Below, in pieces: positions 2,575-22,701 of a DNA stretch of 55,227 bases. The position numbers and the translations under genes were made by a program. Under the pieces are notes generated by a model that was not told the origin of the DNA, did no database searches, and worked only from the letters and a program-made list of their open reading frames with translations. The number at the start of each line of letters is the position of its first letter. Position 1 is the stretch's first letter. The stretch spans positions 1 to 55,227 of IMG/VR virus record IMGVR_UViG_2718218434_000004; one strand, given 5' to 3'. Source of the stretch: a virus. Lineage: Duplodnaviria > Heunggongvirae > Uroviricota > Caudoviricetes.

Positions 2575-2635
2575 TGTTCATAACTATTTGAAAAAATACT
2601 AATTACTATTATAACCAACCATCCATGGTCATCTG

Positions 2636-5481: not shown

Positions 5482-5507
5482 TGCTGCTGTTGGTGCATAT
5501 GCTGACG

Positions 5508-6857
5508 TTAACGCATTTGCTCGGCTACCCCACCAGCTTTAAGTGTGCGCCATCCTTCACGTTCACCAATATCAGCCAGTGGAATGGCAGCGGTTGTCGG
5601 CGTTTCAGAACCAAACGACAGCCAGCGAAGAATGAGATACTGGTCTTTATCGTCTCTGCCAGTACCGATAACGCTTAACGGAGAACATAACCAGCTTTCG
5701 TTATTGATGATTTCTCCACTCTGGCTGTCAGCTCTCGGAGATACCCAATAAATACCATCCTCGCGGCTTTCTATTCTTGGTTTCAGTGGGTCGGTATCCA
5801 TAACCTTAAAATCGCTTCCCTCAATGGTCTGTGGCTCCTGTTTCACGCCATTACCCTGTGGTTGGTACATTGACTTATTGAACGCTTCTGTGGCGCATTT
5901 AATGCCGTGTTTTTGGTGGTAATCATTCCAGTCTGCTTTGTGATCTGTCGGGGGTAATGCCACCCATCCAGAAACAGATAAAGCTGCTTTTTCTGCTGCT
6001 ATTCTCCCCGTGTTTTGTCTTCCTTCGCTGTGGTCGTTATCCGCAGCAATGATGATTTGTGCTGAAGGAAATTTATCCCGCAGTACCTGGGCGACATATA
6101 ACAGGTTCCCGGCATCAATCGCCGCCACTGTCAGCGCCTCTGGACGAATTAAATGGGCAGATAATGCCGTTGCCAGCCCTTCTGCGATTAAGATGCTCTG
6201 TGTTGTTTCTGGCGCGTTTATGGCGTGATATGCCCCCCGCTTTGCTGAACCTGTCAGGAGTCTTTTTTCACCATGTGATGTAATAGTCTGTGCTGCTGTG
6301 ACTGCGCCGGATTTATCCACCAGCGCCAGCAACAGAGATCCATCGGGCAACACGGGGAATGTAAAATCACCTACCCCTTTCGCAACCAGATAATCAGATT
6401 TGCCGTTTACAGCCTTTCTGCGCATGTCATCAAACTGACGGGAAAACGTATCCCGTCTTTGTTGTTCGTCCTTCTCTGCTCTTTTCAGGCGCTCCTGTTC
6501 GCGTCGCTGGCGCTCGGTTTCCAGTTGTTCCCGTTTCTGGCTGGTGGCTTCTGGTGTTTCCGTTGTCCGGTAATCAATACCCAGAACATCAGCGGCAAGA
6601 AGCGCCGCCTCTGTTGTGTCGCAGTTATTTACGCGTTTAATTAAATCCAGCCCATCACCAGCGCCGCACTGATTACAGATGAAGCTACCGCGCCCGTTGT
6701 CATCGAACCGGAATCGATCTTTGCCCCCACATGCAGGGCAGGGAGCATGACGGCGCGGAGAGTCAGGGACATTTATGTTCAGGCAGCCCAGCACATGAGG
6801 CCAGTTGTTTTCAGACGCACTGATAACCTGACGGATAAGATCAATGTTTCGCATCAC
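5508..6857 (-). CDS. DNA primase (zinc-ribbon plus Toprim, P4 alpha N-terminal-like; no helicase domain)
   Basis: [14 protein letters not shown]...[12 protein letters not shown] zinc-binding motif and Toprim-like [17 protein letters not shown] in a 449-aa ORF. Confidence 0.7.
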
Positions 6858-7212
6858 CGTACCCCACGTGGTCTATAGCGTTTGCGATATGGCTAACCAG
6901 CATCTGCCACTTGGTTATTCCGTAATCAGTCAGCATGCCATCATTGTTTAGCCACATATCAAATTCAGCGGTTGTCGCAAGTTTCCACTTATCGCCGTGG
7001 ACAGTCCTCATTGCTGGGTACATGAATGCGCAAATCAGATCACAAACATCTGACGGCTTCAGAGATGTAGTAATGGTGCGTCCCTCTGGCGTCTGAATTG
7101 CCATTTTCTCTTCACCAGTAGAATGAAGGTTATGAATCCACACAGCACCAGCAATCTTTGCCACCTGCTCTCCGATTGCGGAGCTAAGCGCCATTTCTGC
7201 ATTTTCACGCAT
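6841..7212 (-). CDS. hypothetical protein
   Basis: 123-aa ORF in a tightly packed same-strand array upstream of the primase. Confidence 0.4.
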   Translation of the reverse strand: MRENAEMALSSAIGEQVAKIAGAVWIHNLHSTGEEKMAIQTPEGRTITTSLKPSDVCDLICAFMYPAMRTVHGDKWKLATTAEFDMWLNNDGMLTDYGITKWQMLVSHIANAIDHVGYGDAKH

Positions 7213-7546
7213 GAGAACCTCCCGCTACAGTTGCGCCCATGTCATTAACCATGCTTTGCCATATCTCACGCCCGACGTCAGTCAATCCGTCCTTAGTGAC
7301 GCAACGCTCAAGAAGCTCGATCCCCACGGTTTCCCACTGCGGGTAGAACACTTTCATGGCTGCCAGTGTGTAGCTATCGATCAGGCTGCGAACGCCTTTT
7401 ACTCCATTAACGATTTCCACACGTACGGCCTCGCCGTCCGCATCAACCATGAAATAGTCCCCGCCGCTGGTGGAGGTAATGTGGTTATACAGTGCCGACG
7501 CATACTTATTTGCCAGCGCATTCAGTCGGAAATTTTTAGTAATCAT
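7205..7546 (-). CDS. hypothetical protein
   Basis: 113-aa ORF, overlapping gene junctions typical of phage operons. Confidence 0.4.
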   Translation of the reverse strand: MITKNFRLNALANKYASALYNHITSTSGGDYFMVDADGEAVRVEIVNGVKGVRSLIDSYTLAAMKVFYPQWETVGIELLERCVTKDGLTDVGREIWQSMVNDMGATVAGGSHA

Positions 7547-7556
7547 GGCTCCATCC

Positions 7557-8159
7557 TCAGTGCGTCACTGGTTCCGCTGGCATGCCGTTTTCATTCAGTT
7601 CAGCTATAAAGCTGTTGTGAAGTTCAGCAAGCGTTTCACGACCAAATGGAGTCAGTGCTCCTTGTTCCACATCCATCATGGCTCTGTAGAAAATGATGGC
7701 GCGTTCTGTGCCAGACTCGATGCCAAAACGTTCTATCATCGCTCCCTCAATGTTGTTTGCCATAGCGAGGCGCTCTGCTACTGGATACAGCGGCATGGCG
7801 ACGATGCCGTTGGAATAAACAGCCACTTCGGAAGGATTGCCAGTATCATCAATGATGCTGACAGTGCCGTTTTCCTCTCTCATTTCCAGCATGAATACTG
7901 TTGCGATCAGCCATCTCCACATAATGACGTTATGCTGTGATGTGTAATCGAAATATCCCTGGTTGCCGCCATCGGCAATAGCGAGATGTATTGACATACC
8001 TTCATCTGGTTTATCGTCATAATCCCCGGCATCCAGACGATTTACGGCATCAATATATGAGACGGCCTCAACGCGTTCTGTCATGCCATCGTTGCTGCGG
8101 TACATGATGTTTACGCCGTCAGGCGTTGCTTCTGTATGGAAAGTTAAGAAATTATTCAT
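7557..8159 (-). CDS. hypothetical protein
   Basis: Start set at internal ATG (MNNFLTF...) just after the upstream gene's stop; the longer ORF would overlap it. Confidence 0.4.
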   Translation of the reverse strand: MNNFLTFHTEATPDGVNIMYRSNDGMTERVEAVSYIDAVNRLDAGDYDDKPDEGMSIHLAIADGGNQGYFDYTSQHNVIMWRWLIATVFMLEMREENGTVSIIDDTGNPSEVAVYSNGIVAMPLYPVAERLAMANNIEGAMIERFGIESGTERAIIFYRAMMDVEQGALTPFGRETLAELHNSFIAELNENGMPAEPVTH

Positions 8160-8373
8160 GTTTCGCCTCGCCTGAATGATTCTGTAACTCATATTTGCCC
8201 AACAATTCGTCCGCTTCATGAATAGCTTCTGGTACGCCATTGAGCAGTGACATAACCGCGCCAATCATTAACTTGTCTCTGTTGCTGGGGCTGGCCCCTT
8301 CAAGCCAGAACCCTAAAACAGTCTGAACCTGTTCGATGCGACATTGCGCTTCAATGAGCTGGATGTTGGTCAT
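8152..8373 (-). CDS. hypothetical small protein
   Basis: 73-aa ORF in the same-strand array. Confidence 0.35.
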   Translation of the reverse strand: MTNIQLIEAQCRIEQVQTVLGFWLEGASPSNRDKLMIGAVMSLLNGVPEAIHEADELLGKYELQNHSGEAKHE

Positions 8374-8633
8374 TTCGCACTCTCCACATCGATTAAACCG
8401 ATATCTATCAGGGAGGTAACTTTTTGTAGCCAGCTATTGATTACTGTCGCCTGTTCCCCGCCCACCGAGGGAACAATCTCATTCATCACATGAACCAGAC
8501 CTGTGCGCGCTCTGGTAAGCCGTTCAGTCGCGCAATCTGCGGGAGTGAATGTGTCTGGATATGGCTCTTCACGCCCCAGCAATGATTCAATTTCCAGCTC
8601 ACACGGATGACGATAAATTAAGTTGATATTCAT
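8370..8633 (-). CDS. hypothetical small protein
   Basis: 87-aa ORF, 4-bp overlap with neighbours. Confidence 0.35.
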   Translation of the reverse strand: MNINLIYRHPCELEIESLLGREEPYPDTFTPADCATERLTRARTGLVHVMNEIVPSVGGEQATVINSWLQKVTSLIDIGLIDVESAK

Positions 8634-8824
8634 TTTTCACCACCAAGAATTACCAGCTCTGCACGGGCATCGTTAACCAAAGATGAGCACGCTTTAATCG
8701 CATCCACGACATCAGCAGCGTCCATTTCTTCAGCCGAAAGACTGACAGCAACCAGGACAGCCGCTGCTTGCTCGATTAATTGAAGTGCGGACGTAAGGCG
8801 AGGGGTATTAATTGAGTTATTCAT
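8630..8824 (-). CDS. hypothetical small protein
   Basis: Start set at MNNSINTPRL; overlaps the stop of the upstream gene. Confidence 0.35.
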   Translation of the reverse strand: MNNSINTPRLTSALQLIEQAAAVLVAVSLSAEEMDAADVVDAIKACSSLVNDARAELVILGGEK

Positions 8825-9035
8825 TGGTTGCCCCCGTTTTGCATGGCATTTGTCCACCTTCCAGCAGGAAATGAACGTCACGAACGGCGAGGTCCAATAT
8901 CGCGAGTAACGCCTTCAGTTTTTCGTCTCGTGAGGGAGAGTTGCTCACCAGAATGTCATTAATCACTTCTGTCAGTGTGATGATCTGGCTTGTGCGTTCG
9001 AGGGGGTCCATATGCACATCGTAGGTTTTAATCAT
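8817..9035 (-). CDS. hypothetical small protein (C-terminal part of the 355-aa ORF)
   Basis: Internal ATG at 9035 preceded by a GGAGGTGG RBS; downstream 72 aa look protein-like. Confidence 0.4.
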   Translation of the reverse strand: MIKTYDVHMDPLERTSQIITLTEVINDILVSNSPSRDEKLKALLAILDLAVRDVHFLLEGGQMPCKTGATNE

Positions 9036-9884
9036 GTGCCACCTCCATGCGGATACGACCAGCAAAAAAGCAGATGTGATCGCGCACCAGAGAACGGCGA
9101 GCATCGCGTTCAGACTCGGCAGCAATATGATGAATTTTGGCGGTAATTGTCGGGCAATCGCGGCGAACTGCGGCGATAATCCAGATAAATTGCGTTTTTT
9201 GGGTAGGGGTAGTAGCCAGCATGTGGCAGCCTCCTTCAGATAGCAGGTTACGCTACCACCGGAAACGCCAATTTCGCTGGTGGTAGCCCAGACAGGGTTG
9301 GCGTAACCGGCTCTGAAGGATACCGGCGCTTCCGAAGAAGCCCCCGCCTGAGCCACCATTGATTGACAAAGGCGCTGGATTATACACCAACGCCCAAAAA
9401 ATGGGTGAGTCAGACCTACGACATAAAAAAAGACGCTCGGCGCGTCATATGTCGCCTTCAGAATTTTCAGGACGCCAATCCCGGCACCCGTTTTATGAGG
9501 TGCCTTATAACCATAAACCGTGTTGCCGCATAACGGCAAGCTCTTTTTTATGGACTCCGAAAACTCACTATTGGAAGAACCAGAAGCACAGTACATCGCG
9601 CTCATTTCGTTAACGTCACGCGCGTGGACGAAGGTTTTTGTGGAGTCACTACACGAGCAGAGAAAGCCATCTACGACCAGAAATTCTCTGGCATAGCCGC
9701 TGACCTTCTCAACGCTAACACCATCGACCGTAATTTCTGACATAGTTAAGGCATCCGCTCCTACCACCAGCAAATGATAAACTTTGCTTGTATCTGCTGT
9801 ATTAATGTCTGACTTTGCTGTCATATTGCTGGATTTTGGCGACATACCAGCCAGTGAAAATATCTTCTTCTGGGCGGTTAGCAT
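9036..9884 (-). CDS. hypothetical protein, 3' boundary uncertain (possibly frameshifted)
   Basis: N-terminal about 160 aa of ORF 8817-9884 look protein-like; the central part is Cys/Trp/Pro-rich like out-of-frame translation. Confidence 0.25.
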
Positions 9885-10147
9885 TTGTTAACCTCCGCGA
9901 ACTCCTTCATGAAACGTGCCAGCGGTTGTACGCATGGCGATTGATACCCGTCGCGATAAAACGTCACTCGGTTGTGAGACACGCTTTCGACAGTAACGAG
10001 TGCTCCGTGGGCATCTTTGTAGCGTTTTTGAGGTTGTGGTGTTCCTGTCGGCTTAAACATGGACCGCCTCCAGACGCTTGGCGAGCCAGCGTTGCGACAG
10101 GCGGGTGAGTTCTCCTTTGCGCTGCTCATATTCCATGCCCATATCAA
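9878..10147 (-). CDS. hypothetical small protein
   Basis: 89-aa ORF between the antirepressor and the small-gene array. Confidence 0.3.
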   Translation of the reverse strand: MIWAWNMSSAKENSPACRNAGSPSVWRRSMFKPTGTPQPQKRYKDAHGALVTVESVSHNRVTFYRDGYQSPCVQPLARFMKEFAEVNKC

Positions 10148-10886
10148 TTAACGTGATATTGGTGCTTTCGAGATATGAGAGGTGCTCAAGCTGTTCTGCG
10201 TTCATATGGTCGCGAGGTTCGCCAGAATAGCCATTTATCCGCGCCCACTGCTTAGCAGTTAGCCCACCAAGAACGATACGAGAAATCATATTGCTCTCGT
10301 TTGTGTAGTGGTGTTGCTGCGTCGTTTTCCCCATCTCGGCACGGGCCATATTCAGCGCATCGCACATTGGCTTAAAGTTGTTTGCGGCACTGATACGGGC
10401 TTTTAGCTGGCGACGATAGCGGGCGGCGATTTCAGGCACGCTACGCTGTAATTCTTCCTCGCACTGGATGAAATAACGACGGATAGCGCGACCCTGATCA
10501 TTGCGTTCGATCATTGCCAGTTCTTTCGCCATTCCGACACTTAACAGATAGTCTTTGCCGGGTCTGCCAGACTGCTTAATCTTGCTGTAAGCCGCGCCAT
10601 TCGGGCTTTTCCCCAAATTTGGGGAAATTGTTTTATGGACTGAGTAATCGTGCCCAATGGTGAAGTCATATTCAGAGATGCGATCAGTGATCCATGTAGA
10701 GAAGTCTTTTCCCACGCCCAACGCTTTGTGTAACGCTTTTGCGCTAACAATATTGGTTTCACGCCCACCGATATGACCAGGAATAACCGGGACAATTGCG
10801 GCAAATTCATTACCGTTAATTGTGCCCAGAGAGGCGTTCAGATGAGGGGCAGCCTCAGAAATTAATCTGCTTTTTTCGATGTTCAT
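10053..10886 (-). CDS. phage antirepressor (AntA/AntB N-terminal plus KilA-C type)
   Basis: 277-aa ORF; sequence pattern consistent with Ant/KilAC antirepressors (recalled, not searched). Confidence 0.55.
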   Translation of the reverse strand: MNIEKSRLISEAAPHLNASLGTINGNEFAAIVPVIPGHIGGRETNIVSAKALHKALGVGKDFSTWITDRISEYDFTIGHDYSVHKTISPNLGKSPNGAAYSKIKQSGRPGKDYLLSVGMAKELAMIERNDQGRAIRRYFIQCEEELQRSVPEIAARYRRQLKARISAANNFKPMCDALNMARAEMGKTTQQHHYTNESNMISRIVLGGLTAKQWARINGYSGEPRDHMNAEQLEHLSYLESTNITLIDMGMEYEQRKGELTRLSQRWLAKRLEAVHV

Positions 10887-10898
10887 TTTCAGTCTCCG

Positions 10899-11330
10899 TT
10901 AGGCGGCGTTAAACGCGTCCGGGTAGAGTTTCAGAATGTCGGCAATTTCCTGCTGAGAAAGTCCGTTGTGATCATTTATGTTCGCAAGATGGTTAATATG
11001 AGTGATCACTTTCAGAACATCACCACGGCAGGAGAAACGGTAGCGAAGGTGTGTTCCGATACCATCAGGATTCTTTTCGTCGATACGCTCCAGAGTGATT
11101 CCAAGCTGGCGTTCTAACTCTGTTGCATAGTTACGACCAGAAGACAGACGGCAGTAGCGAAGAATGTCGTTTTCTGTCCATCCCTCTATACCAGTTCGCA
11201 GCATATAGACTCGGGCACGATGCTTTTTCGGTGTGCGCTTTGGTGCTTGAAGGGATTTTGTAAGGGGCGTAATATCAGATACGCGAATATCTGAATTAGC
11301 CGCCTGTAATGGGCGGTTTTTCTTTTCCAT
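10899..11330 (-). CDS. hypothetical protein (basic N-terminus, possible DNA-binding regulator)
   Basis: 143-aa ORF immediately downstream of alpA in the same operon. Confidence 0.4.
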   Translation of the reverse strand: MEKKNRPLQAANSDIRVSDITPLTKSLQAPKRTPKKHRARVYMLRTGIEGWTENDILRYCRLSSGRNYATELERQLGITLERIDEKNPDGIGTHLRYRFSCRGDVLKVITHINHLANINDHNGLSQQEIADILKLYPDAFNAA

Positions 11331-11533
11331 CAGGCCACCTCGTCTCTAGATTCTAATATACACTTCTCAATCCATTCATCTATTTCAGACTCAACAAAAG
11401 CAATAGCCCGACTTCCAATTTTTACCTGTTTAGGGAACCTCCCCTGACTAATAAGACGATAAATCCATGCTTTGCTATAACCAGTTCGCCTTTGAACTTC
11501 AGAGAGACGAATTAATGAATTGTAATTAGCCAT
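11330..11533 (-). CDS. alpA: AlpA-family transcriptional regulator / excisionase-like
   Basis: 67 aa, LIRLSEVQRRTGYSKAWIYRLISQGRFPKQVKIGSRAIAF; sits beside a P4-type integrase as in CP4-57. Confidence 0.65.
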   Translation of the reverse strand: MANYNSLIRLSEVQRRTGYSKAWIYRLISQGRFPKQVKIGSRAIAFVESEIDEWIEKCILESRDEVA

Positions 11534-11622
11534 TTATTAATATCCTGTACTAATGACGCAATAACCCCCTCCTGCAACGAATGGCGAGAGTTTTATTTGC
11601 GTCAAATGTCGAATACGCCAAA

Positions 11623-11662
11623 GACCACAATATGAAAAACATATTGCGGTCTTTTATAAAAG
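11623..11662 (+). terminator. hairpin plus T-run (terminator-like) in the int-alpA intergenic region
   Basis: GACCACAATATG-aaaaa-CATATTGCGGTC followed by TTTTATAAAAG; no plus-strand gene upstream. Confidence 0.3.
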
Positions 11663-11960
11663 ATAGTCAGATTGTTTTGGTTTGTTTGCTCCACAAGGGT
11701 AGAGCTACCCTGCATTTCGGCAGGATCACGCTATTAGGCGTGACATCCAGTAGTTTTAAAGAACAATTGCGCTTTGTCAGCGCCAAAGCCTGTTAAAGAA
11801 CATTCCGCTTTTCAGCAGCGTAGAAGGCTCAATACACCTTCGTTTATAAAAGAGCGATTGCCCTTCTCCAGGGCTAACTGTTAAATAGCAATCCTCTGTG
11901 AGTTTTTATCAATCTACTCCCCTATACTTTAGTAAACCTCTGTATACTTGTCCAGTTGTT

Positions 11961-13175
11961 TCATGCGTGTTTTTCAAACACCATATGCACCACATTTCCG
12001 CCATGCTCGAGAGAATCCATATAGTCGGCATACCATTGAAGCATCTCCCGCCTTCCATCCAGATATTGCGCATGGTTGTATGTGCCACGAATTGAGTTCT
12101 TATCAACGTGAGCGAGCTGAGTTTCTATCCACGCAGTGTTATAGCCCTGCTCATGCAAAATCGTACTCATAGTGTGCCGGAACCCATGACCAGTTACACG
12201 TCCAGCGTAGCCAATGCGCTTAAACACTTGGTTTATGCTGGCCTCACTCATTGTTTTCCTTGGATCATTGCGCCCGGGAAACATAAGAGGGTAATTGCCT
12301 GTTATTTCTCTAATCTTCCCAATAAGCGAAAGAGCCTGCTCAGACAATGGCACAATATGAGGCCGCCGCATTTTCATACGTGAAGCGGGTATCTCCCAGA
12401 TAGCCTTGTTGAAATCAATTTCATCCCATAATGCGCCACGTAGTTCGCCAGTTCGCAAGCCGGTGATAATCAGTAGACGAGCCGCCATAACAACCAATGC
12501 GCTTCCTGAGTAACTGGACAATGCCTTGAAAAAATCAGGTAATTCTTTGGCTGTAAGGAAAGGGTAATGATTAGATTCATGGCCTTGCATCGCGCTAGTA
12601 AGGTCTGGTGCAGGGTTATACTCTGCGCGACCAGTGACTATTGCATAGCGGAAAACTTCCCCGCACCGCTGCCTCACTTTTTTGGCTTTTTCTGTAGCAC
12701 CTCGCCCCTCGATGCGCCGCAGCACATTCAGAAGTTCAAGTGGTTTGATTTCGGCGATTGGTTTTTTGCCAATGTAAGGGAACACATCTTTGTTGAAGGC
12801 TTCGAGGATGTCTGAAGCATAACCAGCAGACCATTTTTTTAATTTGCTGCTGTGCCACTCAAGGGCAATATCTTTGAAGGTGTTGTTTAACTGCGTTTCC
12901 CGGGCAATCTTTTCCTCTCGTTTCGCTTCCATCGGATCGATACCACCAGCGATACCTCTTTTCGCATCTTCACGTTTTGCCCGAGCATCGGCTAGAGTAA
13001 CCTCAGGATACACACCTAGTGCCAATAGCTTCTCTTTACCAGCTACACGATATTTAAGTCGCCAGTATTTACCTCCATTAGGTTTTACCAAGAGATACAA
13101 ACCGCCACCATCGGCCAGCTTGTAAGCCTTCTCTTTTGGCTTGGCTGTGTCTATTTGACGGGCATTGAGTTTCAC
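11961..13175 (-). CDS. int: P4-family tyrosine integrase
   Basis: 404 aa; N-terminus MKLNARQIDTAKPKEKAYKLADGGGLYLLVKPNGGKYWRLKYR is the P4/CP4-57 integrase signature; C-terminal R..H..R..Y catalytic region. Confidence 0.85.
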   Translation of the reverse strand: MKLNARQIDTAKPKEKAYKLADGGGLYLLVKPNGGKYWRLKYRVAGKEKLLALGVYPEVTLADARAKREDAKRGIAGGIDPMEAKREEKIARETQLNNTFKDIALEWHSSKLKKWSAGYASDILEAFNKDVFPYIGKKPIAEIKPLELLNVLRRIEGRGATEKAKKVRQRCGEVFRYAIVTGRAEYNPAPDLTSAMQGHESNHYPFLTAKELPDFFKALSSYSGSALVVMAARLLIITGLRTGELRGALWDEIDFNKAIWEIPASRMKMRRPHIVPLSEQALSLIGKIREITGNYPLMFPGRNDPRKTMSEASINQVFKRIGYAGRVTGHGFRHTMSTILHEQGYNTAWIETQLAHVDKNSIRGTYNHAQYLDGRREMLQWYADYMDSLEHGGNVVHMVFEKHA

Positions 13176-13240
13176 TTGGGGGTACCTCCACTAAACCGAA
13201 CAGCAAATACCCCCATAAGTACCCCCATCTGACCGTAGAT

Positions 13241-13323
13241 TTTGAGGGACTTTAGTAGACGTCAAAAGACGAACGGGGCTTTAATACGCGGATTATAATG
13301 GGTTTTGAAAGACTTTAGTAGAC
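13241..13323. repeat. two 20-bp direct repeats TTTGA(G/A)(G/A)GACTTTAGTAGAC (13241-13260, 13304-13323); putative integrase arm sites
   Basis: Near-identical repeats 63 bp apart between the integrase start and the att core. Confidence 0.5.
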
Positions 13324-13338
13324 TTGGGGAGATGTTTG

Positions 13339-13386
13339 AATGGTGCCGATAATAGGAGTCGAACCTACGACCTTCGCATTACGAAT
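13339..13386. repeat. att site: 48-bp direct repeat of the thrW 3' end (junction between element A and prophage B)
   Basis: Identical to 53782-53829; sequence diverges immediately outside both copies. Confidence 0.85.
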
Positions 13387-13779: not shown

Positions 13780-15246
13780 CTATGCGCCTGGATTGGGTTC
13801 GATCATACTCAGCGTTTTTGCTATTTTCTTAATCTCATCATCATTATCCAAAAAAGAGGCGTCTTTTATTACCACAGTACGCTCTTCTTGTAATAGCTCA
13901 CCTATTTTTTCTTCTATAAAATCTAAGGTTGGCATTATAATCTGGATGTCTCGAGAAAAAGTAGTTTTTGCATCTTCTATACTGTTGAATCCATTATGTA
14001 TATGAGTGAATATTCTCTTTTTAAACTGTATGTCTTCTGGATTTCCCACTAACTGACTGAAATCTCCTTTCATAACTCTTTCGCTTGTTTCAAAGAGCTG
14101 TATTGCTATCGAGTCGATTAATTCCTTTTTGGACAGAGATGCTTGTTCATAAAATTTGGTGACTAACTCTGTTGGCAACTTTCTTGAGACGACTTTAATG
14201 GACAGTCTCTGAAATAGGTAAGGTGCCACCACGCCCACACTGAAAGGGTGAATCCTCCCTGGATTTAATAATTTTATTGTGACGTTTTCAAAAACTAGCT
14301 CATTGATTTTACTATTTATGAATTCCATTAAATACTTATCTAATGATAATGTTACCGACGCAACCGCTTCTATCACTTGTTTAAATGGCTCGCCTTTCAA
14401 GGATTTAAAAAACTCTTTGTTATAACCAAAGAAATCCACAAAACCTAAATTTATTCGATTTTCTTCTTTAGTATTTGAAATGCGAATTTGAAGTTGTTTT
14501 AAGTCTTCATCGGTCAAGTATTTTAAACCATAGTCATCAAGCGCGTTACGTATAACTTTATCTGCAGATTCTAAGTCGATTACAGTTTTTACATTAAAAA
14601 ACAATGATAACAATGAATCATACTTATGAACTCGCAAGGTTAAATCTGTTGCATTTGATGCGGTTACATTTATCCGTCTCAAAAGATCAATAACTTTACT
14701 AATTGGTAGGCTGTTTTCAAAAATTTTGAATGACTCGTATTCAGATACAACATCTTTTATATACTTACTGATAGTATCAGACTTTATTTCCACCTCAACT
14801 TCGGTTGAGTAAGAATGAATTAGTGAGTTTGTAGTTTCAGCGATGTCATTTGATACATACAACTTATATTCGAAACAATCAGGAGCGGGAAGCAAACTAT
14901 TATCAATAATGGAAAACAATAAAAATTTAATTATTTCTCTTAATGCTTGCGGTCTAGTTATTCTACCTTGCATTTTTTTACATTGTATTAAACCACTTAC
15001 AACACCGTTATGGTATAGCACGCAGTCGCGTCCTCTTTCAGAAACTCCTTGCATTAAAGATATTGAGGATATATTTTTATGCTTTCCATCTTCAATTTCG
15101 TTCTTTACTAACAAATAACATAGCAACTCAAATTCTCGATCACCTAATTCTGAAAAGGGAAGCAATCCGATACCAGAATCTATAGTCCATGGTCTATATC
15201 CTGATTGAGCCTCGATATTAATTTGTTCGTCACTGATTTTTTTCAC
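13780..15246 (-). CDS. Mrr-cat-like PD-(D/E)xK nuclease domain fused to a roughly 380-aa uncharacterised domain (candidate restriction/defence protein)
   Basis: AT-rich 488-aa ORF; N-terminal FELLCYLL...GVSERGRDCVLY...GLIQCKK matches the Mrr catalytic-core pattern. Confidence 0.6.
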   Translation of the reverse strand: MKKISDEQINIEAQSGYRPWTIDSGIGLLPFSELGDREFELLCYLLVKNEIEDGKHKNISSISLMQGVSERGRDCVLYHNGVVSGLIQCKKMQGRITRPQALREIIKFLLFSIIDNSLLPAPDCFEYKLYVSNDIAETTNSLIHSYSTEVEVEIKSDTISKYIKDVVSEYESFKIFENSLPISKVIDLLRRINVTASNATDLTLRVHKYDSLLSLFFNVKTVIDLESADKVIRNALDDYGLKYLTDEDLKQLQIRISNTKEENRINLGFVDFFGYNKEFFKSLKGEPFKQVIEAVASVTLSLDKYLMEFINSKINELVFENVTIKLLNPGRIHPFSVGVVAPYLFQRLSIKVVSRKLPTELVTKFYEQASLSKKELIDSIAIQLFETSERVMKGDFSQLVGNPEDIQFKKRIFTHIHNGFNSIEDAKTTFSRDIQIIMPTLDFIEEKIGELLQEERTVVIKDASFLDNDDEIKKIAKTLSMIEPNPGA

Positions 15247-15561
15247 TTAAATCTCCTTCTAATCTTATTGACCTACTCCCTACATTGTAACAGGGGATGA
15301 TGATAAGGTGTATCTTTCGAGCTATAAGCACGATAAATAAGTGATTAAAAATGACTCTTTAAACTATTTTAATTTAAAAAATTAATTGTTAGTTCTAATT
15401 ATGGTATGAGGGCATTTTCGGCATAGTTCTAACCATATACTTTGGTAAAAATGACTGTTACGGAACAGACCATAGTAATGCCTGCTATTGGCACGGAGCG
15501 GGCTGCCTGAGCGCCGTGGGGTCTGCAAACGGTAAGCATACCGATAACTATACGCTTGGCC

Positions 15562-15981
15562 TTAGTAACTTTTGCTCCCCTCAATAAATCCGCCATCTTT
15601 TATCGGACTGCAATGTCCTTCTTCATCAATCAGTTGCTCGTCTTTCAGGTAGGTATATCGATAGATAATTGAGCCATTATCCATCTCACCATTGGTTCGT
15701 TTCATTAGGAGAGTAAAATGTAACGGGCTGTCCCTATATCGAGCTATTCCATGAATATTGGCAAGTACCTCATATTGACGCTCAGGTGATAACCCTTTAA
15801 ATACATCGAGATATCCATGGAATGTTCCATAGAGTGAAGAAGTGTAGATCAGTCGCTGCTCTGGACCAGTAACTTTAAGAGTAATTTGTTCACCCGTATT
15901 ACAGGTTAGCTTGGCGGGAAATGTCTCAGCCTGAGCAGAAGAAATAGTCAAGCTTAAAATTATCAGGTAGCAATATTTCAT
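15562..15981 (-). CDS. secreted protein of unknown function
   Basis: Start at ATG 15981 (MKYCYLIILSLTISSAQA-ETF) gives a signal peptide; AT-rich, own intergenic regions. Confidence 0.5.
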   Translation of the reverse strand: MKYCYLIILSLTISSAQAETFPAKLTCNTGEQITLKVTGPEQRLIYTSSLYGTFHGYLDVFKGLSPERQYEVLANIHGIARYRDSPLHFTLLMKRTNGEMDNGSIIYRYTYLKDEQLIDEEGHCSPIKDGGFIEGSKSY

Positions 15982-16389
15982 GTGATTAGAATGTCCAAAA
16001 CTAACATGTATACTCGGGATTCTATAACTAGTTGGATGTAGACCCAAGATGTATTGGACTATTCTTCGGTTGTAGTTGGTCAAATCATATATTTTATGTC
16101 AGCAATGTCTACTTTTGGCACATAGCAGACCAGAGACACTGGCGTAAAGCCATGGAGGATCGGTGGGAGGAGGTAAAAATCCTCTCATGCAAAAAATACG
16201 CAAAATCGATAACAGTTGGAAATCATTCAATACTCGCACTATCGGAAGTTCACCAGCCAGTCGTAGCACGTTCTTGCATATGACGTGGCTACGGGTTTCG
16301 AGACCGACCCGATCATCAAACGAAACATAAAATTAGCTCACATTATGAGGAAAGGTATCTTTTTGCGCTATGTAAATTCAAAGGGTTAG

Positions 16390-17259
<870 letters not shown>

Positions 17260-17319
17260 GTCTTTAAGTGATAAGCATAAACCGCAGCACGATCTTCTTG
17301 CATACGACGTGCTACGGTT

Positions 17320-17874
17320 TCATTTATCTCCGACCGGAAACTTCTTATACAGTGTCGATATACCAACATCATAGATGATCGCCACCTTCTGGCGAGGAAC
17401 GCCTGATGCAATTAATCGCCCGGCCTGCGCCCATTGTTCTGGTGTAAGTTTGGGACGACGTCCACCAATTCGTCCCTGTGCGCGAGCAGCTTCCAGTCCA
17501 GCTTTTGTTCGTTCAACAATCAGTTCTCGTTCCATTTCAGCCAGGGCACCCATGACATGAAAAAAGAAACGGCCCATTGGGGTACTGGTATCAATACTAT
17601 CAGTCAGGCTTCGGAAATTCACGCCACGCTGGCGCAACTCTTCTATCAGCGTAACAAGATGCCGCATACTGCGCCCTAACCTGTCCAGCTTCCAGACAAC
17701 CAGAGTGTCACCTGCCGATAATGTCCTGAGCAGTTTTTTCAGTCCGGGCCTTTCGGACTTCGTACCGCTTATCTTGTCTTCAAAAATCAGTTCACATCCT
17801 ACACAGTTCAACGCATTACGTTGTAGATCGGTGTTCTGGTCATTTGTTGATACGCGTACATAGCCAATAAGCAT
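17320..17874 (-). CDS. pin: DNA invertase, serine recombinase (Pin/Gin/Hin family)
   Basis: MLIGYVRVSTNDQNTDLQRNAL... resolvase N-terminus plus C-terminal HTH; 184 aa. Confidence 0.85.
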   Translation of the reverse strand: MLIGYVRVSTNDQNTDLQRNALNCVGCELIFEDKISGTKSERPGLKKLLRTLSAGDTLVVWKLDRLGRSMRHLVTLIEELRQRGVNFRSLTDSIDTSTPMGRFFFHVMGALAEMERELIVERTKAGLEAARAQGRIGGRRPKLTPEQWAQAGRLIASGVPRQKVAIIYDVGISTLYKKFPVGDK

Positions 17875-17900
17875 GGTGGATCTCCCTGACAAAAGCAGGA

Positions 17901-18473
17901 ATGATGCCATTTGCTCGTTATTTCTGCATTTTCATAAACGTTGGTTTGGGAGAAGGTGCTCCAGCTATTGGCGTTCCGTTCTTCTGGCCGTCCGCCGCAA
18001 TGCCAAATACTGTAATCGACAGTTGGTCCAGTATGGTGTTTTTGAAGTTCAACGGCGCGAAATTCTCTGCCACTGATTACCCTGTGCTGGCGAAAGTGTT
18101 TCCGGCGCTAGCATTACCTGACGCACGGGGTGATTTCATTCGTATCTGGGATGATGGGCGCGGGATTGATGTCGGACGTACCCTACTTTCAGGGCAATCA
18201 CACACAATTATGGATCATGCACACAATATGGAATTGTGGACGGGGGACGGGCTTGCCGCAGGAAGTGCACGGGAAGGAGTAAACCCAGGAATACTGGCTA
18301 CATACGGTGACGGGGGAATAGTTAAAACGGACGAACCCGGTCTTAAGGTGCCTTCCTCACTACGAGCTCTTAGCTCTCGTAGTGTTAAACGTTATGGTGA
18401 AATTAGTGGAAATGTAGATACAGAAACCCGTCCACGAAATATTGCATTTAACTTTCTGGTGAGGGCTAAATAA
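17901..18473 (+). CDS. alternative tail-fibre C-terminal segment (silent orientation)
   Basis: ORF begins at the crossover site and runs opposite to the active tail-fibre gene. Confidence 0.5.
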   Translation: MMPFARYFCIFINVGLGEGAPAIGVPFFWPSAAMPNTVIDSWSSMVFLKFNGAKFSATDYPVLAKVFPALALPDARGDFIRIWDDGRGIDVGRTLLSGQSHTIMDHAHNMELWTGDGLAAGSAREGVNPGILATYGDGGIVKTDEPGLKVPSSLRALSSRSVKRYGEISGNVDTETRPRNIAFNFLVRAK

Positions 18474-19066
18474 TGATACCTGTTTTTGATGAAAATGGGC
18501 TGGCTACAGTGCCGGGCGATATGCGTTGTTTTTATTATAATGCAGTAACGTATGAATATACCGGCTGGTCTGATGAATATATTAATACTGGCGTAAGTAT
18601 ACCCGCCTGTTCCACTGGTATTGACCCGGGCGAAAACATCCCGGGAAAAGTGGCAGTATTTACGGGTAAGGGATGGAGCCATGAAGAAGACCATCGCAAT
18701 GAGACCGTTTACTCAACTGAAAATGGCGCAGCTGTTACAGTGGATTATATCGGTGCCATCAAAGACGGTTATGTCACGCTTTCACCGTTAACGCCATACG
18801 ATAAATGGGATGGTGAGAAATGGGTGACGGATACCGAGGCACAGCATAGCGCCGCAGTAGAAGCGGCAGAAGCACAGCGCCAGTCGCTGATTGATGCTGC
18901 AATGGCTTCCATCAGTCTGATTCAACTGAAATTACAGGCTGGGCGGAAGCTGACGCAGCCAGAAAACACCCGACTTAACGCTGTGCTGGATTACATTGAC
19001 GCGGTGACGGCAACAGATACCAGCACAGCGCCGGACGTCATCTGGCCTGAACTGCCGGAGGCGTAG
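18473..19066 (+). CDS. tail fibre assembly protein (alternative copy)
   Basis: 197-aa ORF within the invertible segment, paired with the alternative fibre tip. Confidence 0.6.
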   Translation: MIPVFDENGLATVPGDMRCFYYNAVTYEYTGWSDEYINTGVSIPACSTGIDPGENIPGKVAVFTGKGWSHEEDHRNETVYSTENGAAVTVDYIGAIKDGYVTLSPLTPYDKWDGEKWVTDTEAQHSAAVEAAEAQRQSLIDAAMASISLIQLKLQAGRKLTQPENTRLNAVLDYIDAVTATDTSTAPDVIWPELPEA

Positions 19067-19481
19067 ACCATTCAATATCTGGCGCACCGGAAGTATCGAC
19101 CAGTTCCAGTGCGTCCAGATAATCCAGCCACAAATTATATTGCGCCAGTTCCTCACCTTTCAGACGACCAATTGATGCTTTACCTGGCCATTGTTTACTG
19201 TTTATGTATTCGTTGGCCTGGTTAATCAATTGCTGCTTTTTAGTTTCGGCTGATGCAATTTGTTCTTCACGTGTTGGTGGAGGAATATCTGCCCATGCAG
19301 GCAGTCCATCCTCTCCGACACATCTGTATTTTCCTTCTGGTGGTGTATCATAGAAATATTCCCTGAAAATTACTTCGTCTATATCAACACCTTTTTCTTC
19401 AGGCCATTCACCTTTTTCAACATAAAGAGACTGAAGTTCGTAAGGATATGCCAGGTTGTTTACGTACAGATATTTCATCAT
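19038..19481 (-). CDS. tail fibre assembly protein
   Basis: 147-aa ORF directly downstream of the tail-fibre gene, same strand. Confidence 0.65.
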   Translation of the reverse strand: MMKYLYVNNLAYPYELQSLYVEKGEWPEEKGVDIDEVIFREYFYDTPPEGKYRCVGEDGLPAWADIPPPTREEQIASAETKKQQLINQANEYINSKQWPGKASIGRLKGEELAQYNLWLDYLDALELVDTSGAPDIEWSTPPAVQAR

Positions 19482-20104
19482 TACCAGCCCTTAGCGAAAA
19501 ACGCACCACCTTCAAGACCATAATTGCAGTGAGCTATGAAGCCGGTAGTGCTCCAGTTGGTCGCCCCCCACATATTCCCGCCCCCGAAACCACCATCGCA
19601 CACAATTACAATGCCCGGTGTCTGTGTAAATGGAATCGGGAATGAAACATTGGCGGATACAGGCCCGTGTTCACCAGGAAAACTAATTCGTCCCCACTGT
19701 TCAATTGAACCATCTGGCATTTTTCGCCAGCCTGAACCTGATGCATATGATGACATATCAGGTATCTGATTTTCCCCTGTTCCCACATTCCGTTTTGCCG
19801 CTTCTCCCAAACCAAGGTTTTCGAGAGCCGTTTTCACCGTGCCATCCGATTTGATATCGCCAAACGGATTCTTGCGGCTTAACAGCAGCGCACGAAGCGC
19901 TGTAAGCAGCTGGTCATGCCGCCCCTTCTCTAGGCTGGCACCGGATGCCTCCACAACACTGCAAAGTTCCTCCTGCAACATGTCAAAGTAGTCATCATCC
20001 AGATCGGTGGCAGGTGTGCCGGTCTGGGGGTTACCACGGGTAAAACCGTTCTTACCCGCGCCGAACTTATCCTTCTGCGCGGTTTTCGTGTCTATACGAT
20101 GCAT
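19481..20104 (-). CDS. side tail fibre protein (constant N-terminus plus invertible C-terminus)
   Basis: 207-aa ORF; the crossover site lies about one third into the gene, as for e14 StfP/Mu S. Confidence 0.65.
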
Positions 20105-20107
20105 GGA

Positions 20108-20692
20108 TTACTCCGGATATTTAAAAATTACGTAGGTATGCGACGGGCAGAGTTTGTTAAGCACACATTCGACAACGGTGTCGCCCCAGATACGCAGCGC
20201 GGAATCACAGGGATCGCCACATGTCATCCAGGTGGTGTTTGTGGCGGCTGGCATGTTGACCTGCCAGTAATACCGCCATTCCGGCGCATTCACCGCGTCA
20301 GTACAGACCGATGAGCAGGTGAACGTGCTTTTGTCGTATCGCGTGATGTTGGCATCTGGTCTGCCCAGGGCAGCAAGCTGTGCAAGGTAAAAATCCTCAT
20401 TGATGCCGCCCGCCAGATTAACCTTCGCATCCAGCCGTTGCTGACGCTGGCGAAGGGTCTGCGTCCCTGCCGGAATACATTCATCCGGCAGGCCGCACAG
20501 ACGCTCCCAGCGGTTTATCAGTTCAGTGGTGGTGCGCGGATCCAGCTCCCGCATCAGGGCATCCGCACGCTGATGAACACGGGTTAATGACGGTGCCGCA
20601 CCGGCAATCGCCGGATCGCTGGCTGACCACGCCGGACCGGGGGGCAACAGTGCCGACAACAGACGGATGTAATCATCGTTTGTCACGTCCAT
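20108..20692 (-). CDS. phage tail protein, YmfQ/DUF2313 (Mu gp48-like)
   Basis: 194 aa, same length as e14 YmfQ; position between baseplate J and tail fibre. Confidence 0.55.
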
Positions 20693-21741
20693 GAAATCGT
20701 CCCCAGAACCGCCAGTTCATTTTTTGCAATGGAGATATTGTCTGTCGGTGCAAGCAACTGATGGCTGTATTCCCCGTTCGCACCGGAAATCGCCTCACTG
20801 ATACGCGATACCTTCAGTTCTCCCTGCGGATAACCATCACGCAGCAGGAACGAACGCAACTCCGCGGTGATGGCAGCCCGTATTTCCGGTGTGTCCGGCG
20901 TCACGCGGATATGAAAATCCACCGTATGTGCCACCGGCCTAAACACATACAAATCAGAGCCTGCCACCGGGGCCAGTGGCTCGATATGTTGTCTTGCCGC
21001 CGTTTCCGTTGATTCTTCCGGAATGGGATTAATCAGGTCACTGCTGGCAATCATCACACCGACAGTTCCCGTTCCCATCCAGTGACGGTATGTCCATGCG
21101 CGGGTAATGCCGGGCACTTCTTTAGCCCAGACAACATAGTCCCCGTCAGCCCCGCCCTGCGGCGTCCAGTAATACCGCTCAATGACGCGGGCGCGCCACG
21201 TTTCCAGCTCTTCAGTATCAAATCCGCCTGTCAGGGTGTCAGCCACACCGGAAGACGGCAGACCATTCACCGGCGTGACCAGGATTAATGCCGTACCGTC
21301 GTCAGCGTTACCGACCGCACCTGCACTTGAGCAGGCGATCGGCACGCGCAGGACACCACCGGAGCTGGTTGCATCGTCAGTTGTCGTGTACTGCACCAGG
21401 TCATCGCGCTGAATAACACTCCCGGCGGTCACCTTCAGGCCATCGCTGACACCTTCCCAGCGCATATACCCACTGGCAGCCGTGGCTCCCTTGCGCGGAC
21501 ACCGTTTCATCGCAGCATGTCGCGCCAGCCAGGACTCATCGCACAGGTCAGGCAGCATGTTCATTGCCAGATAATCGATGTAACCGTAAACCGTATGCAG
21601 CGCCGCCGCATACACCTTTGCCCGCACGTCTTCATCCATGCGCCGGAGCGTGTCGCTGACGTCCAGCCTGGCGAATAAATCGTTACGGAGCATACTGATA
21701 TTTTCTGCCAGCGTCGGGCGCTGAAATTCACTGTCCGCCAT
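20683..21741 (-). CDS. baseplate J-like protein (Mu gp47-like)
   Basis: 352-aa ORF in conserved Mu-type baseplate order. Confidence 0.6.
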
Positions 21742-22156
21742 GCGTTATCGCACTCCACAGATCATCAAAAGAAATCATTACCGGTCCGTCACGACGCCAG
21801 AGAGTGATACTGTTACCCAGGTCATTAATCCCGGTGCGGCGGATATCCAGATCAATACGGGACACCACGCCGTCATCAATCATCCATTGCAGGCATTCGC
21901 GGATATACCCCCTTACCGTCTGCACCAGCTGATTGGTCAGTTTGCTGCGCTGAAGCAGCCACAGTCGGGAGCCGTAACGGTCATTCTGTACCGCAGGCCA
22001 GGTATCCCCCCACCATCCCATCGGGACGTCGGCATTGTCATCAGGTTCAGCCCGCCGCCAGGTGAACAGGGAAATCACCACGGCACGGGTCAGCGGATCC
22101 ATCGGTGCGCTGGCACAGGTGCGTTTACCGTTCACCGTCAGCCACAGTTCCATCAT
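21728..22156 (-). CDS. baseplate protein (Mu gp46 family)
   Basis: 142-aa ORF between the spike and J-like genes. Confidence 0.55.
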   Translation of the reverse strand: MMELWLTVNGKRTCASAPMDPLTRAVVISLFTWRRAEPDDNADVPMGWWGDTWPAVQNDRYGSRLWLLQRSKLTNQLVQTVRGYIRECLQWMIDDGVVSRIDLDIRRTGINDLGNSITLWRRDGPVMISFDDLWSAITHGGQ

Positions 22157-22701
22157 GCCTCCATCGCTTTATCAGGTTTGTCGGTGTTACTGCCCTGACC
22201 GTTCTCTCTGTGACGATGCCCGTTATAGGCAAGCCGCATCGCTGACATGGTGGTGCCGCTGGAGTCGCACAGGTCTTTCACCTGTCCGGTCACTTCCAGG
22301 TCCATTTCAAAACGAGCCTTAGGCGCATTGCGAAACGTGATCGTTTTACCTGCACCGTCCACCACGATCCCCGCCCGGGTCAGCGTCACGGACTGCCCCT
22401 GATCGTCATAGACAGCCACCTCACCCGTCTGCAGCCCTTTCAGGCGGTAGCGTCGGTCCGACACCGTAACAACCACCGCATGAGAACGGTCACCATCCGG
22501 AAACAACACCACCGCTTCCGCACCGCTGTTTGCCCTTGCGGTAAAACCGTAGGGTTCAAGATGTTCAACCCCGGCTTTGGGTTCACCGGCAATCAGGGAC
22601 ACATCCACGGTCTGACATTTCGTGGCGGCACTGATGCTTTTCACCACCGCCCGCCCAATCAGGCCGAGGAGTTGTCGCTGTATGGTTTCAATCGCCTTCA
22701 T
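22153..22701 (-). CDS. baseplate assembly protein V / spike (Mu gp45-like)
   Basis: 182-aa ORF at the gpV position. Confidence 0.55.
   Translation of the reverse strand: MKAIETIQRQLLGLIGRAVVKSISAATKCQTVDVSLIAGEPKAGVEHLEPYGFTARANSGAEAVVLFPDGDRSHAVVVTVSDRRYRLKGLQTGEVAVYDDQGQSVTLTRAGIVVDGAGKTITFRNAPKARFEMDLEVTGQVKDLCDSSGTTMSAMRLAYNGHRHRENGQGSNTDKPDKAMEA

Follow-up and report, generated by a model that had tools for sequence, protein, structure and literature searches.

The P segment of the defective prophage e14 of Escherichia coli K-12 and its invertase PinE were reportedly described by Plasterk and van de Putte in 1985 (cited via PMC4272514). More recently, the K-12 e14 protein StfE2 was reported to block phage adsorption at the cell surface (Kirigo et al., 2025; PMC12529663). 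Comparable segments are the G segment of phage Mu and the C segment of phages P1 and P7. In Salmonella, the invertase Hin acts on the H segment, and an enhancer that requires Fis is situated in the 5′ portion of the hin gene (PMC3798978). The window analyzed here, i.e., the whole stretch of 55,227 nucleotides of viral DNA, very probably contains an active tail-fiber switch of the Pin type, the class of the e14 P, Mu G and P1 C segments, carried by a complete E. coli prophage of the SfV/e14-like myovirus kind. This switch is an ordinary, already annotated and already known system. The analysis is mainly a confirmation that a real and working inversion switch had been recognized from raw sequence, and its biological addition is limited to new fiber-tip alleles for a module described in the 1980s.

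The likeness to e14 extends over the whole module. Both elements have the gene order ymfQ, Sc, [Sv, tfa, tfa′, Sv′], pin in common, and the constant N-terminal part of the fiber is nearly identical to that of K-12 StfP. Pin (173 of 184 residues, 94%) and YmfQ (97%) are highly similar as well, and both crossover sites are identical at 26 of 26 positions, the pin-proximal one to the pinE-proximal site of K-12 and the fiber-proximal one to the site inside stfP. The segment, which is 1797 bp in e14 according to the literature, spans 1873 bp here from central dinucleotide to central dinucleotide, although the way of measurement may differ between these two values. In contrast to e14, the cassettes and chaperones are other alleles, and the surrounding element is a complete prophage of 40.5 kb at a tRNA-Thr gene, whereas e14 is a defective 15-kb remnant in icd. 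Furthermore, while mcrA adjoins pinE in e14, this position is taken here by the known defense gene PD-T4-3 (E 2.4e-140), which together with two unknown genes forms the cargo on the pin side. As the location is another one, mcrA is replaced and the cassettes are only partly identical, the locus is not e14 itself but the corresponding homologous module of another element related to e14.

Judged by its ORF lengths, the prophage appears structurally complete, with an integrase, 56-bp att repeats and exclusively full-length structural ORFs. Its att site, a tRNA-Thr(CGU), fits thrW, at which SfV-type phages integrate as well. A relationship to the Shigella serotype-converting phages SfV, SfI, SfII and SfIV is evident from the tail/baseplate module and the fiber N-terminus, with 95–96% DNA identity over 19754–20800, and SfV, SfI and SfII also share the upstream ymfQ/gp48 homolog. 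However, the DNA matches of the latter three phages to the query 17000–20800 end at the constant part of the fiber and reach neither the segment nor pin. Compared with the prophages of strains 0H24 and CAVP776, the element is 98.5% identical over 13331–37880 and mosaic beyond. The features of the switch are listed in Table 1.

Table 1. Features of the invertible tail-fiber locus (positions in the window).
Feature	Position	Strand	Description
pin	17320–17874	−	serine DNA invertase, 184 aa; just outside the segment, 54 bp away
Enhancer-equivalent stretch (candidate)	17785–17856	−	nt 19–90 of pin; two conserved islands
Short leader	17901–17941	+	begins with ATG ATG outside the segment; continues across the pin-proximal site into the pin-facing cassette
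Pin-proximal crossover site, 26 bp	17929–17954	−	central TT at 17941–17942 on the + strand
Sv′	17942–18473	+	alternative fiber C-terminal cassette (collar-type tip), now unjoined to the constant part
tfa′	18473–19066	+	tail-fiber assembly chaperone, 197 aa, partner of Sv′
tfa	19038–19481	−	tail-fiber assembly chaperone, 147 aa, partner of the currently expressed Sv
Sv	19481–19814	−	fiber C-terminal cassette with a gp53-like C-terminal domain; currently joined to Sc
Fiber-proximal crossover site, 26 bp	19802–19827	+	within the fiber reading frame, encodes ...NLGLGE...; central AA at 19814–19815
Sc	19815–20104	−	constant N-terminal fiber part of about 97 aa; not included in the invertible segment

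The invertase gene lies just outside the segment, as originally predicted. In the translated protein the catalytic residues R7, S9, D64, R65 and R68 were identified by position and a C-terminal HTH could be read, which was in line with the Pfam matches (Resolvase, E 2.6e-52; HTH_7, E 4.6e-13); no NCBIfam model reached its cut-off for Pin. Pin is 81% identical to Cin of P1 and 77% identical to Gin of Mu (tblastn), the best match among solved structures is the crystal structure of Gin (3uj3; E 1.9e-93, residues 1–181), and an identical protein is named pinE in RefSeq. By its domains, catalytic set, sites and similarity to the founding members, the predicted protein can be assigned to the Hin/Gin/Cin/Pin (Din) family of enhancer-dependent serine invertases, and it is presumably the catalyst of the inversion at this locus. 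A longer ORF of 196 aa (17320–17910) was dropped as a candidate for the invertase, as it is the 184-aa form that matches PinE, Cin and Gin from end to end. This match, along with a Shine-Dalgarno-like AGGGAG upstream, is the reason why the start at 17874 was preferred.

The exchange point and this start are 67 bp apart. An equal spacing separates the annotated G-segment boundary from gin in Mu, and there, too, the invertase gene is found outside the segment and turns its 5′ end toward it. Mu also joins a constant S part to either Sv or Sv′, both of which come with a chaperone of their own (U or U′). In contrast to the locus described here, the segment of Mu measures about 3 kb, the fibers are much longer, the gix site (read from the Mu locus as TTCCTGTAAACCGAGGTTTTGGATAA) is unlike the present sites in sequence, and Mu is a transposing phage with another head and replication module. 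P1 and P7 follow the same tail-fiber host-range logic, but their cin is directed toward the segment, which is about 4.2 kb in size, and cixL overlaps the 3′ end of cin. Salmonella Hin shares the invertase family and the architecture of the 26-bp sites, yet hin is located inside its own segment and flips a promoter of flagellin genes instead of swapping coding cassettes.

Din-family invertases are able to cross-complement each other, and the segment might consequently be flipped in trans by another genomic invertase, be it PinQ/PinR-like or Cin-like, with the adjacent pin being silent or inactive. Indeed, PinQ reportedly acts in trans on the e14 segment, which overproduced PinQ inverted to a greater extent than PinE did (Kirigo et al., PMC12529663). 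A consensus scan of 17200–20300 also revealed no recognizable sigma-70 promoter upstream of pin; the promoter and terminator counts obtained for this region were no higher than in shuffled sequence. Nevertheless, a trans-acting enzyme with a non-functional pin appears very improbable, as Pin retains its full length, the complete catalytic set and the DNA-binding domain, with the Shine-Dalgarno-like sequence ahead of its gene, as the site-to-start spacing and the upstream block match those of Mu gin, and as a deletion of pinE locked the segment in K-12 (PMC12529663).

A candidate for the recombinational enhancer is found within pin itself. Nucleotides 19–90 of the gene align without any gap to the same interval of P1 cin, which is annotated as the "enhancer of Cin-mediated C-segment inversion", and likewise to P7 cin. 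The identity of this stretch is 76% to P1 and 93% to K-12, and it includes two islands, GTATCAACAAATGA (nt 22–35) and CAGGATGTGA (nt 74–83), both of which are invariant in pin, cin and gin. At the same time the stretch is coding sequence for the conserved catalytic N-terminus. Conservation at third codon positions amounts to 0.52–0.58 in the stretch (19–21 codons with the same amino acid) versus 0.46 in the rest of the gene, which is a small excess. The motif Q-x-x-R-L has been reported to be unique to Fis-dependent invertases, with Q151, R154 and L155 of Hin being linked to activation by Fis and the enhancer (PMC3798978). Pin contains this motif as QAGRL, and QAGRL of Gin and QMRRL of Cin are found at the equivalent place. 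Judged from these sequence comparisons, the first 90 nt of pin may contain a Fis-bound enhancer.

The pin-proximal crossover site reads TTCTCCCAAACC AA CGTTTATGAAAA on the minus strand and the fiber-proximal one TTCTCCCAAACC AA GGTTTTCGAGAG on the plus strand, with both sites being defined as 26 bp centered on the 2-bp core. They agree with each other at 21 of 26 positions, including the core and the inner half-sites, which are identical. By our own count, the internal dyad symmetry of the half-sites comprises 8 of 12 and 9 of 12 positions, respectively; the core is AA in both sites and they are mutually inverted. The sites are of the hix type, with a match to hixL at 20 of 26 positions. The inverted-repeat search returned the corresponding arms 17936–17955 and 19801–19820 (20 nt, 95% complementary). 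When the entire window was scanned with the 19-nt core pattern TTCTCCCAAACCAAGGTTT and up to three mismatches, exactly two occurrences in opposite orientation were found, compared to a chance expectation of 0.03; two matches were reached in none of 100 shuffles. As multi-inversion systems such as Min or the shufflons have more than two sites, this possibility was rejected on the basis of the count. The repeats published for e14, TTGGTTTGGGAGAAGG and CCTTCTCCCAAACCAA (PMC12529663), are contained with 16 of 16 positions in the pin-proximal site and with 15 of 16 in the fiber-proximal site. The original prediction had located the sites at 17931–17956 and 19802–19827; the right one is correct, whereas the left one was out of register by 2 bp. 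On exact alignment the two sites do match, and they are those of K-12 e14. A further inverted repeat (18985–19002 and 19111–19128) was rejected as a recombination site, since it represents a conserved motif that both of the convergent tfa genes encode at the C-terminus.

The interval between the two exchange points (17942–19814) is in good agreement with the length of about 1.9 kb estimated beforehand, and the ORF map and family matches bear out that it comprises two alternative fiber C-termini and two assembly genes in opposite orientations. Sc was recognized by PHROG families of tail-fiber N-termini (E 1.8e-78). Sv, which is part of the 207-aa ORF 19481–20104, matched Pfam Gp53-like_C above the curated cut-off (E 4e-07), and Sv′ matched the PHROG tail collar fiber and tail fiber families (E 2.9e-48 and 5.4e-48) as well as, weakly, Pfam Collar. 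No NCBIfam model reached its cut-off for the fiber. Each cassette is followed by its own Caudo_TAP gene. For tfa′ this assignment (Pfam Caudo_TAP, E 1.2e-27; PHROG 105, E 5.6e-83) is accompanied by 123 of 194 positions being identical to K-12 TfaE, while for tfa (Pfam Caudo_TAP, E 6e-32; PHROG 188, E 2.5e-52) the resemblance to K-12 TfaP is limited to the C-terminal 91 aa. The current fiber as a whole is identical to StfP at 124 of 184 positions, and these are clustered in the constant part. When the segment is inverted in silico at its central AA/TT, the constant head comes into frame with Sv′ and the fiber grows from 207 to 273 aa, with no stop codon in the fiber frame in either state, and this 273-aa fiber is an annotated complete CDS in strain 0H25. 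As the fiber-proximal site is situated inside the fiber frame, inversion swaps both the cassette and the cognate chaperone gene joined to the 97 constant codons.

Both orientations of the segment occur in public genomes. A 900-bp junction, inverted in silico, was found with 100% identity in 0H23, 0H25, 0H26, CX05, the chromosome of CX15 and LR536430, and the junction in the orientation of the window was found with the same identity in 0H15, 0H18, 0H24, CX04, CX07, CX21 and CAVP776. The 0H and CX genomes with opposite orientations are near-isogenic complete genomes, and both states occur within each of these two strain series. When the 0H24 sequence was flipped in silico, it did not show a single mismatch to 0H25 in 8001 bp; the flipped window differed from 0H25 by two SNPs, both of them outside the segment. 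The assembly of CX15 even includes both states, one in the chromosome and the other one in an error-rich linear extra contig of 18 kb. No relevant publication on the 0H/CX strain series turned up in a literature search.

For the window's own strain one orientation is represented, and short inverted repeats can in principle mislead short-read assembly. It might hence be argued that the locus is a frozen relic and that the differences in orientation among assemblies are artifacts or ancient fixed differences. We give next to no credence to this explanation, as the repeat of only about 20 bp is too short to mislead an assembler, and as siblings with the same coordinates differ by the exact 1873-bp inversion alone. 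The presence of both states within each series and in a single assembly argues against it as well. The sibling complete genomes represent a natural experiment which demonstrates that the switch flips. The intact switch of the G/C/P type that had been proposed from the window is borne out accordingly: all structural elements are present and intact, the segment flips in nature, and the possibility that only one orientation is ever observed has been dispelled by the sibling genomes. On a practical note, annotation mislabels the unjoined cassette as a pseudogene, and spurious extra contigs are possible at such loci, as in strain CX15.

By analogy with the characterized members of the family, the recombination would start with Pin dimers binding and pairing the two 26-bp sites, probably on a Fis-bound enhancer in the first 90 nt of pin. 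Pin would then cleave both sites at the central AA/TT via Ser9, and a rotation of half of the tetramer followed by religation would leave the 1873 bp inverted. As a consequence, the 97 constant codons of the N-terminus would be connected to, and transcribed together with, the other cassette and its chaperone gene. In the first state the phage would produce the 207-aa fiber with a gp53-like tip together with the 147-aa Tfa, and in the second state the 273-aa fiber with a collar-type tip together with the 197-aa Tfa. The chemistry of these steps and the dependence on Fis are presumably the same as in the related systems. The tips fall into separate fold families, Gp53-like_C and collar-type. This is suggestive of the two host-range variants originally proposed, and it appears plausible that the tips bind different receptors.

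Apart from the fiber, the pin-facing cassette is also part of a second reading frame. The ORF starting in the short leader (17901–18473) has a length of 190 aa in the current state and of 124 aa after inversion, with the latter version being annotated as WP_001372123.1 in 0H25. It is the counterpart of K-12 stfE/StfE2 (PMC12529663), and its ATG block is conserved in Mu. The ORF might be translated from the ATG at 17901 or 17904 into a free fiber-tip protein which acts as a decoy at the cell surface and blocks the adsorption of other phages, so that inversion would be a phase variation serving the host. This idea, which is compatible with a role of the switch in host range, fits with the ORF being present in both states and with the conservation of the leader in K-12 stfE and in Mu. 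It also fits with PD-T4-3 being located on the far side of pin, where e14 has mcrA, and with the report that inversion of the e14 P segment gives rise to StfE2 and to resistance against T2 (Kirigo et al., 2025; PMC12529663). However, the cassettes diverge from those of K-12, not only in the fiber compared with StfP but also in the Sv′ ORF, which is identical to StfE at 92 of 166 positions (55%). As the cassette sequences are unlike those of K-12, the T2-specific effect of StfE2 is not transferable to this prophage. Moreover, the scan of 17200–20300 revealed no promoter-like site ahead of the leader on the plus strand, and part of the leader sequence (...GLGE) is fixed by the crossover site, so that its conservation may be a by-product. 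As the prophage is complete, the classical function in the virion also has an obvious use here. A decoy function of the ORF therefore appears rather unlikely. Similarly, we would give only a small chance to the more specific idea that the pin-facing cassette is translated from one of the two ATGs and protects the lysogen, with the pin end, including PD-T4-3 and the two unknown cargo genes, forming a phase-variable defense island. If this were true, every flip would alter the host range of the phage and the immunity of the host together. As this prophage is intact, the link to the recent defense claim about StfE2 provides a testable perspective, albeit a modest one.

The invertible tail-fibre switch that the original prediction placed at this locus is real and was correctly interpreted as an intact system of the G/C/P type: all components are present, inversion preserves the reading frame and both orientations occur in sibling genomes. 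Systems of this kind have been known since the 1980s, and RefSeq already annotates this one. According to the ORF map, a Mu/SfV-type baseplate operon on the minus strand leads into the fibre and chaperone genes, and a serine recombinase gene (pin) lies on the same strand beyond the ORF of the second fibre cassette. The predicted 1.9 kb with two opposed fibre C-termini and two assembly genes amount to 1873 bp, in which the currently joined cassette Sv and its chaperone gene tfa face the unjoined cassette Sv' and tfa'. The constant fibre N-terminus (Sc) is assigned to tail-fibre PHROGs (E 1.8e-78), a Gp53-like_C domain is found in the current C-terminus, Sv' matches tail-collar fibre families (E 2.9e-48) and the products of tfa and tfa' are both Caudo_TAP chaperones. 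As the two tips belong to different domain families, they may bind different receptors. The genes tfa and tfa' converge, and their 3' ends share 29 bp (19038-19066). An inverted repeat at 18985-19002 and 19111-19128 was rejected as a recombination site; it mirrors a C-terminal motif shared by the chaperones (LDYIDA and LDYLDA).

Features of the switch, the surrounding prophage and the element to its left
Feature	Position	Strand	Remark
Toprim/zinc-ribbon primase	5508-6857	-	left element
Ash-family protein	8817-9884	-	left element
AntA antirepressor	10053-10886	-	left element
P4-type integrase	11961-13175	-	left element
Cargo ORF, 488 aa	13780-15246	-	between left att repeat and pin
Small cargo ORF, 139 aa in RefSeq	15562-16083	-	between left att repeat and pin
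GIY-YIG (LEM-3-like) protein adjoining pin	16486-17259	+	full-length PD-T4-3 match, PADLOC E 2.4e-140; Pfam LEM-3_GIY-YIG
pin, serine invertase	17320-17874	-	
ORF with second fibre C-terminus (Sv')	17901-18473	+	faces minus-strand fibre genes
Pin-proximal 26-bp site	17929-17954	-	TTCTCCCAAACC AA CGTTTATGAAAA
Chaperone tfa', 197 aa	18473-19066	+	Caudo_TAP
Fibre-assembly chaperone tfa, 147 aa	19038-19481	-	Caudo_TAP
Tail-fibre ORF, 207 aa	19481-20104	-	ORF map
Fibre-proximal 26-bp site	19802-19827	+	TTCTCCCAAACC AA GGTTTTCGAGAG
gp48/YmfQ homologue	20108-20692	-	end of Mu/SfV-type baseplate operon
Integrase	52606-53769	+	inside right att end

A repeat search returned an inverted repeat of 20 nt (17936-17955 and 19801-19820; 95% complementary), and centring on the 2-bp core defined two 26-bp sites, which match each other at 21 of 26 positions with identical core and inner half-sites. 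Across the 55-kb window there are just two matches to the core pattern, compared with 0.03 expected by chance. Inverted sites thus flank the segment as predicted, but the coordinates proposed for the left site were 2 bp out of register with the right one. Exact alignment bore the sites out, both being identical (26/26) to those of e14, the defective E. coli K-12 prophage with the P segment and its invertase PinE; the published e14 P-segment repeats are found at 16/16 positions in the pin-proximal and 15/16 in the fibre-proximal site (PMC12529663). The ...GLGE joint of the fibre is encoded by the crossover site itself.

The invertase was rightly expected just outside the segment, where pin is intact and encodes both Resolvase and HTH_7 Pfam domains. 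Read from the ATG at 17874, which has AGGGAG upstream, Pin comprises 184 aa; a 196-aa ORF was discarded as the invertase, being an upstream extension of this gene. Pin is identical to K-12 PinE at 173 of 184 residues, to P1 Cin at 81% and to Mu Gin at 77%, among solved structures it is closest to Gin (3uj3, E 1.9e-93), and RefSeq already names the identical protein pinE in several genomes. The Q-x-x-R-L motif, reported to be specific to Fis-dependent invertases (PMC3798978), is present as QAGRL. By analogy with the family, Pin would bind the sites, synapsis would occur on a Fis-bound enhancer, and Ser9 would cleave at the AA/TT core, followed by subunit rotation and religation. In the P1 and P7 records, nt 19-90 of cin are annotated as the enhancer for Cin; they align gap-free to nt 19-90 of pin (17785-17856) with 76% identity. 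Two islands invariant across pin, pinE, cin and gin (GTATCAACAAATGA and CAGGATGTGA) fall inside G-N13-C 15-mers with centres 49 bp apart by our own count. Third-position conservation in nt 19-90 is only slightly raised (0.52-0.58 vs 0.46), and the stretch also codes for the conserved catalytic N-terminus; the similarity is consistent with a candidate enhancer and is not independent proof of one. The stretch between the pin-proximal exchange point and the pin start codon is colinear with that between the G boundary and gin in Mu, with 67 bp spacing in both.

Inverting 17942-19814 in silico at the central dinucleotides keeps the 97 codons of Sc in frame with the second cassette and yields an unbroken fibre of 273 aa, with the 197-aa chaperone encoded downstream. 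This in-silico result and the annotation of the 273-aa CDS in 0H25 (from the near-isogenic E. coli 0H and CX strain series) show that fibre tip and cognate chaperone are swapped in frame. The 900-bp inverted junction and the window's own junction were searched against 5,426 complete E. coli genomes. The former was 100% identical over 900 bp in 0H23, 0H25, 0H26, CX05, the CX15 chromosome and LR536430, the latter 100% identical in 0H15, 0H18, 0H24, CX04, CX07, CX21 and CAVP776. At a coverage of at least 80%, 17 genomes carried the window type and 22 the inverted type; the locus is therefore not confined to one orientation. Locus coordinates in the 0H and CX genomes agree to within a few bases. 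Once inverted in silico, 0H24 equals 0H25 with 0 mismatches over 8001 bp, whereas without inversion 1387 positions differ, all inside the segment; the sibling genomes thus show that inversion at the two sites is exact and reciprocal. The inverted window differs from 0H25 by 2 SNPs, both outside the segment: over 14161-22161, the window departs from 0H24/0H25 only at 17599 and 21821, the former being the third position of pin codon 92 and predicted to be synonymous.

P-segment inversion has been documented in E. coli cultures (PMC4272514; PMC12529663). The CX15 chromosome is in the inverted state, and NZ_CP081745.1, the linear 18,368-bp CX15 'plasmid unnamed5', holds the same locus with chromosomal flanks in the opposite orientation. 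It was rejected as a plasmid: the record duplicates the chromosomal region around the segment, with many frameshifts, and probably arose during assembly from a culture with both states. A mixed culture is the simplest reading of the two CX15 states. The partial genome of Escherichia phage vB_EcoM-689R6 (ON470584.1) encodes a Pin 94.6% identical to the window's, with mcrA next; its invertase gene (28-582) begins just 28 nt into the record, and a gene annotated as 'side tail fiber' occupies 1794-2309. The assembly may have broken at an invertible segment, and the record suggests that Pin-bearing relatives occur among phage records.

The gene order is that of K-12 e14 (ymfQ, stfP, tfaP, tfaE and stfE in reverse, pinE, mcrA), but the cassette alleles differ: the Sv' ORF shares 92/166 residues with StfE and Tfa' 123/194 with TfaE, Tfa resembles TfaP in the C-terminal 91 residues only, and the whole current fibre matches StfP at 124/184, mostly within the constant part. 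SfV-group Shigella phages have the baseplate and the constant fibre part in common with the window, and their DNA matches to the 17000-20800 query stop short of the invertible segment.

Outside the segment lies a conserved ATG-ATG leader (17901-17941, plus strand), from which an ORF runs into the unjoined cassette whichever way the segment is oriented. Starting at ATG 17901/17904, this ORF crosses the pin-proximal site into the pin-facing cassette and spans 190 aa now and 124 aa after inversion; RefSeq lists it in one orientation as a pseudogene (partial 'phage tail protein') and in the other as a 'hypothetical protein'. In the Mu record, the S' CDS is likewise annotated with a start outside the G segment. 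The K-12 counterpart is stfE/StfE2, and StfE2 is reported to block T2 adsorption (Kirigo et al., PMC12529663), which, together with the anti-phage system PD-T4-3 next door, would fit a host-defence role of the fibre-tip protein. Such a role appears improbable, however, as the cassettes differ from those of K-12, a promoter scan found no promoter-like site upstream of the leader, and the leader is partly dictated by the crossover site itself.

The host element differs from e14 as well, being a 40.5-kb prophage at tRNA-Thr(CGU). Its ends are marked by 56-bp direct repeats (13331-13386 and 53774-53829; 96% identical), the right copy of which overlaps the 3' part of the tRNA gene (53784-53859, minus strand), in keeping with thrW as the site at which SfV-group phages integrate. 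In length, the ORFs for head, tail and baseplate equal their intact annotated counterparts in the 0H24 and CAVP776 prophages, which are 98.5% identical. As these ORFs are full-length and att repeats and an integrase are present, the prophage could plausibly make particles. Relative to e14, PD-T4-3 takes the place of mcrA, which makes the pin-distal end of these prophages look like an exchangeable slot for defence cargo. Pfam, PHROG and NCBIfam gave no match for either cargo ORF; the 488-aa protein shows a weak LmuA-like N-terminal match (E 0.004) and, by eye, a D...QxK nuclease-like motif, and the N-terminus of the small one resembles a signal peptide.

To the left of the prophage, a second integrative element lies in tandem (1-13330). 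It also has several ORFs without a family and resembles a satellite or a phage-inducible island. The left flank in 0H24 and CAVP776 is a different, CP4-like island with YkfI/YafW, and in 0H24 a heat-resistance locus is located further left of it.
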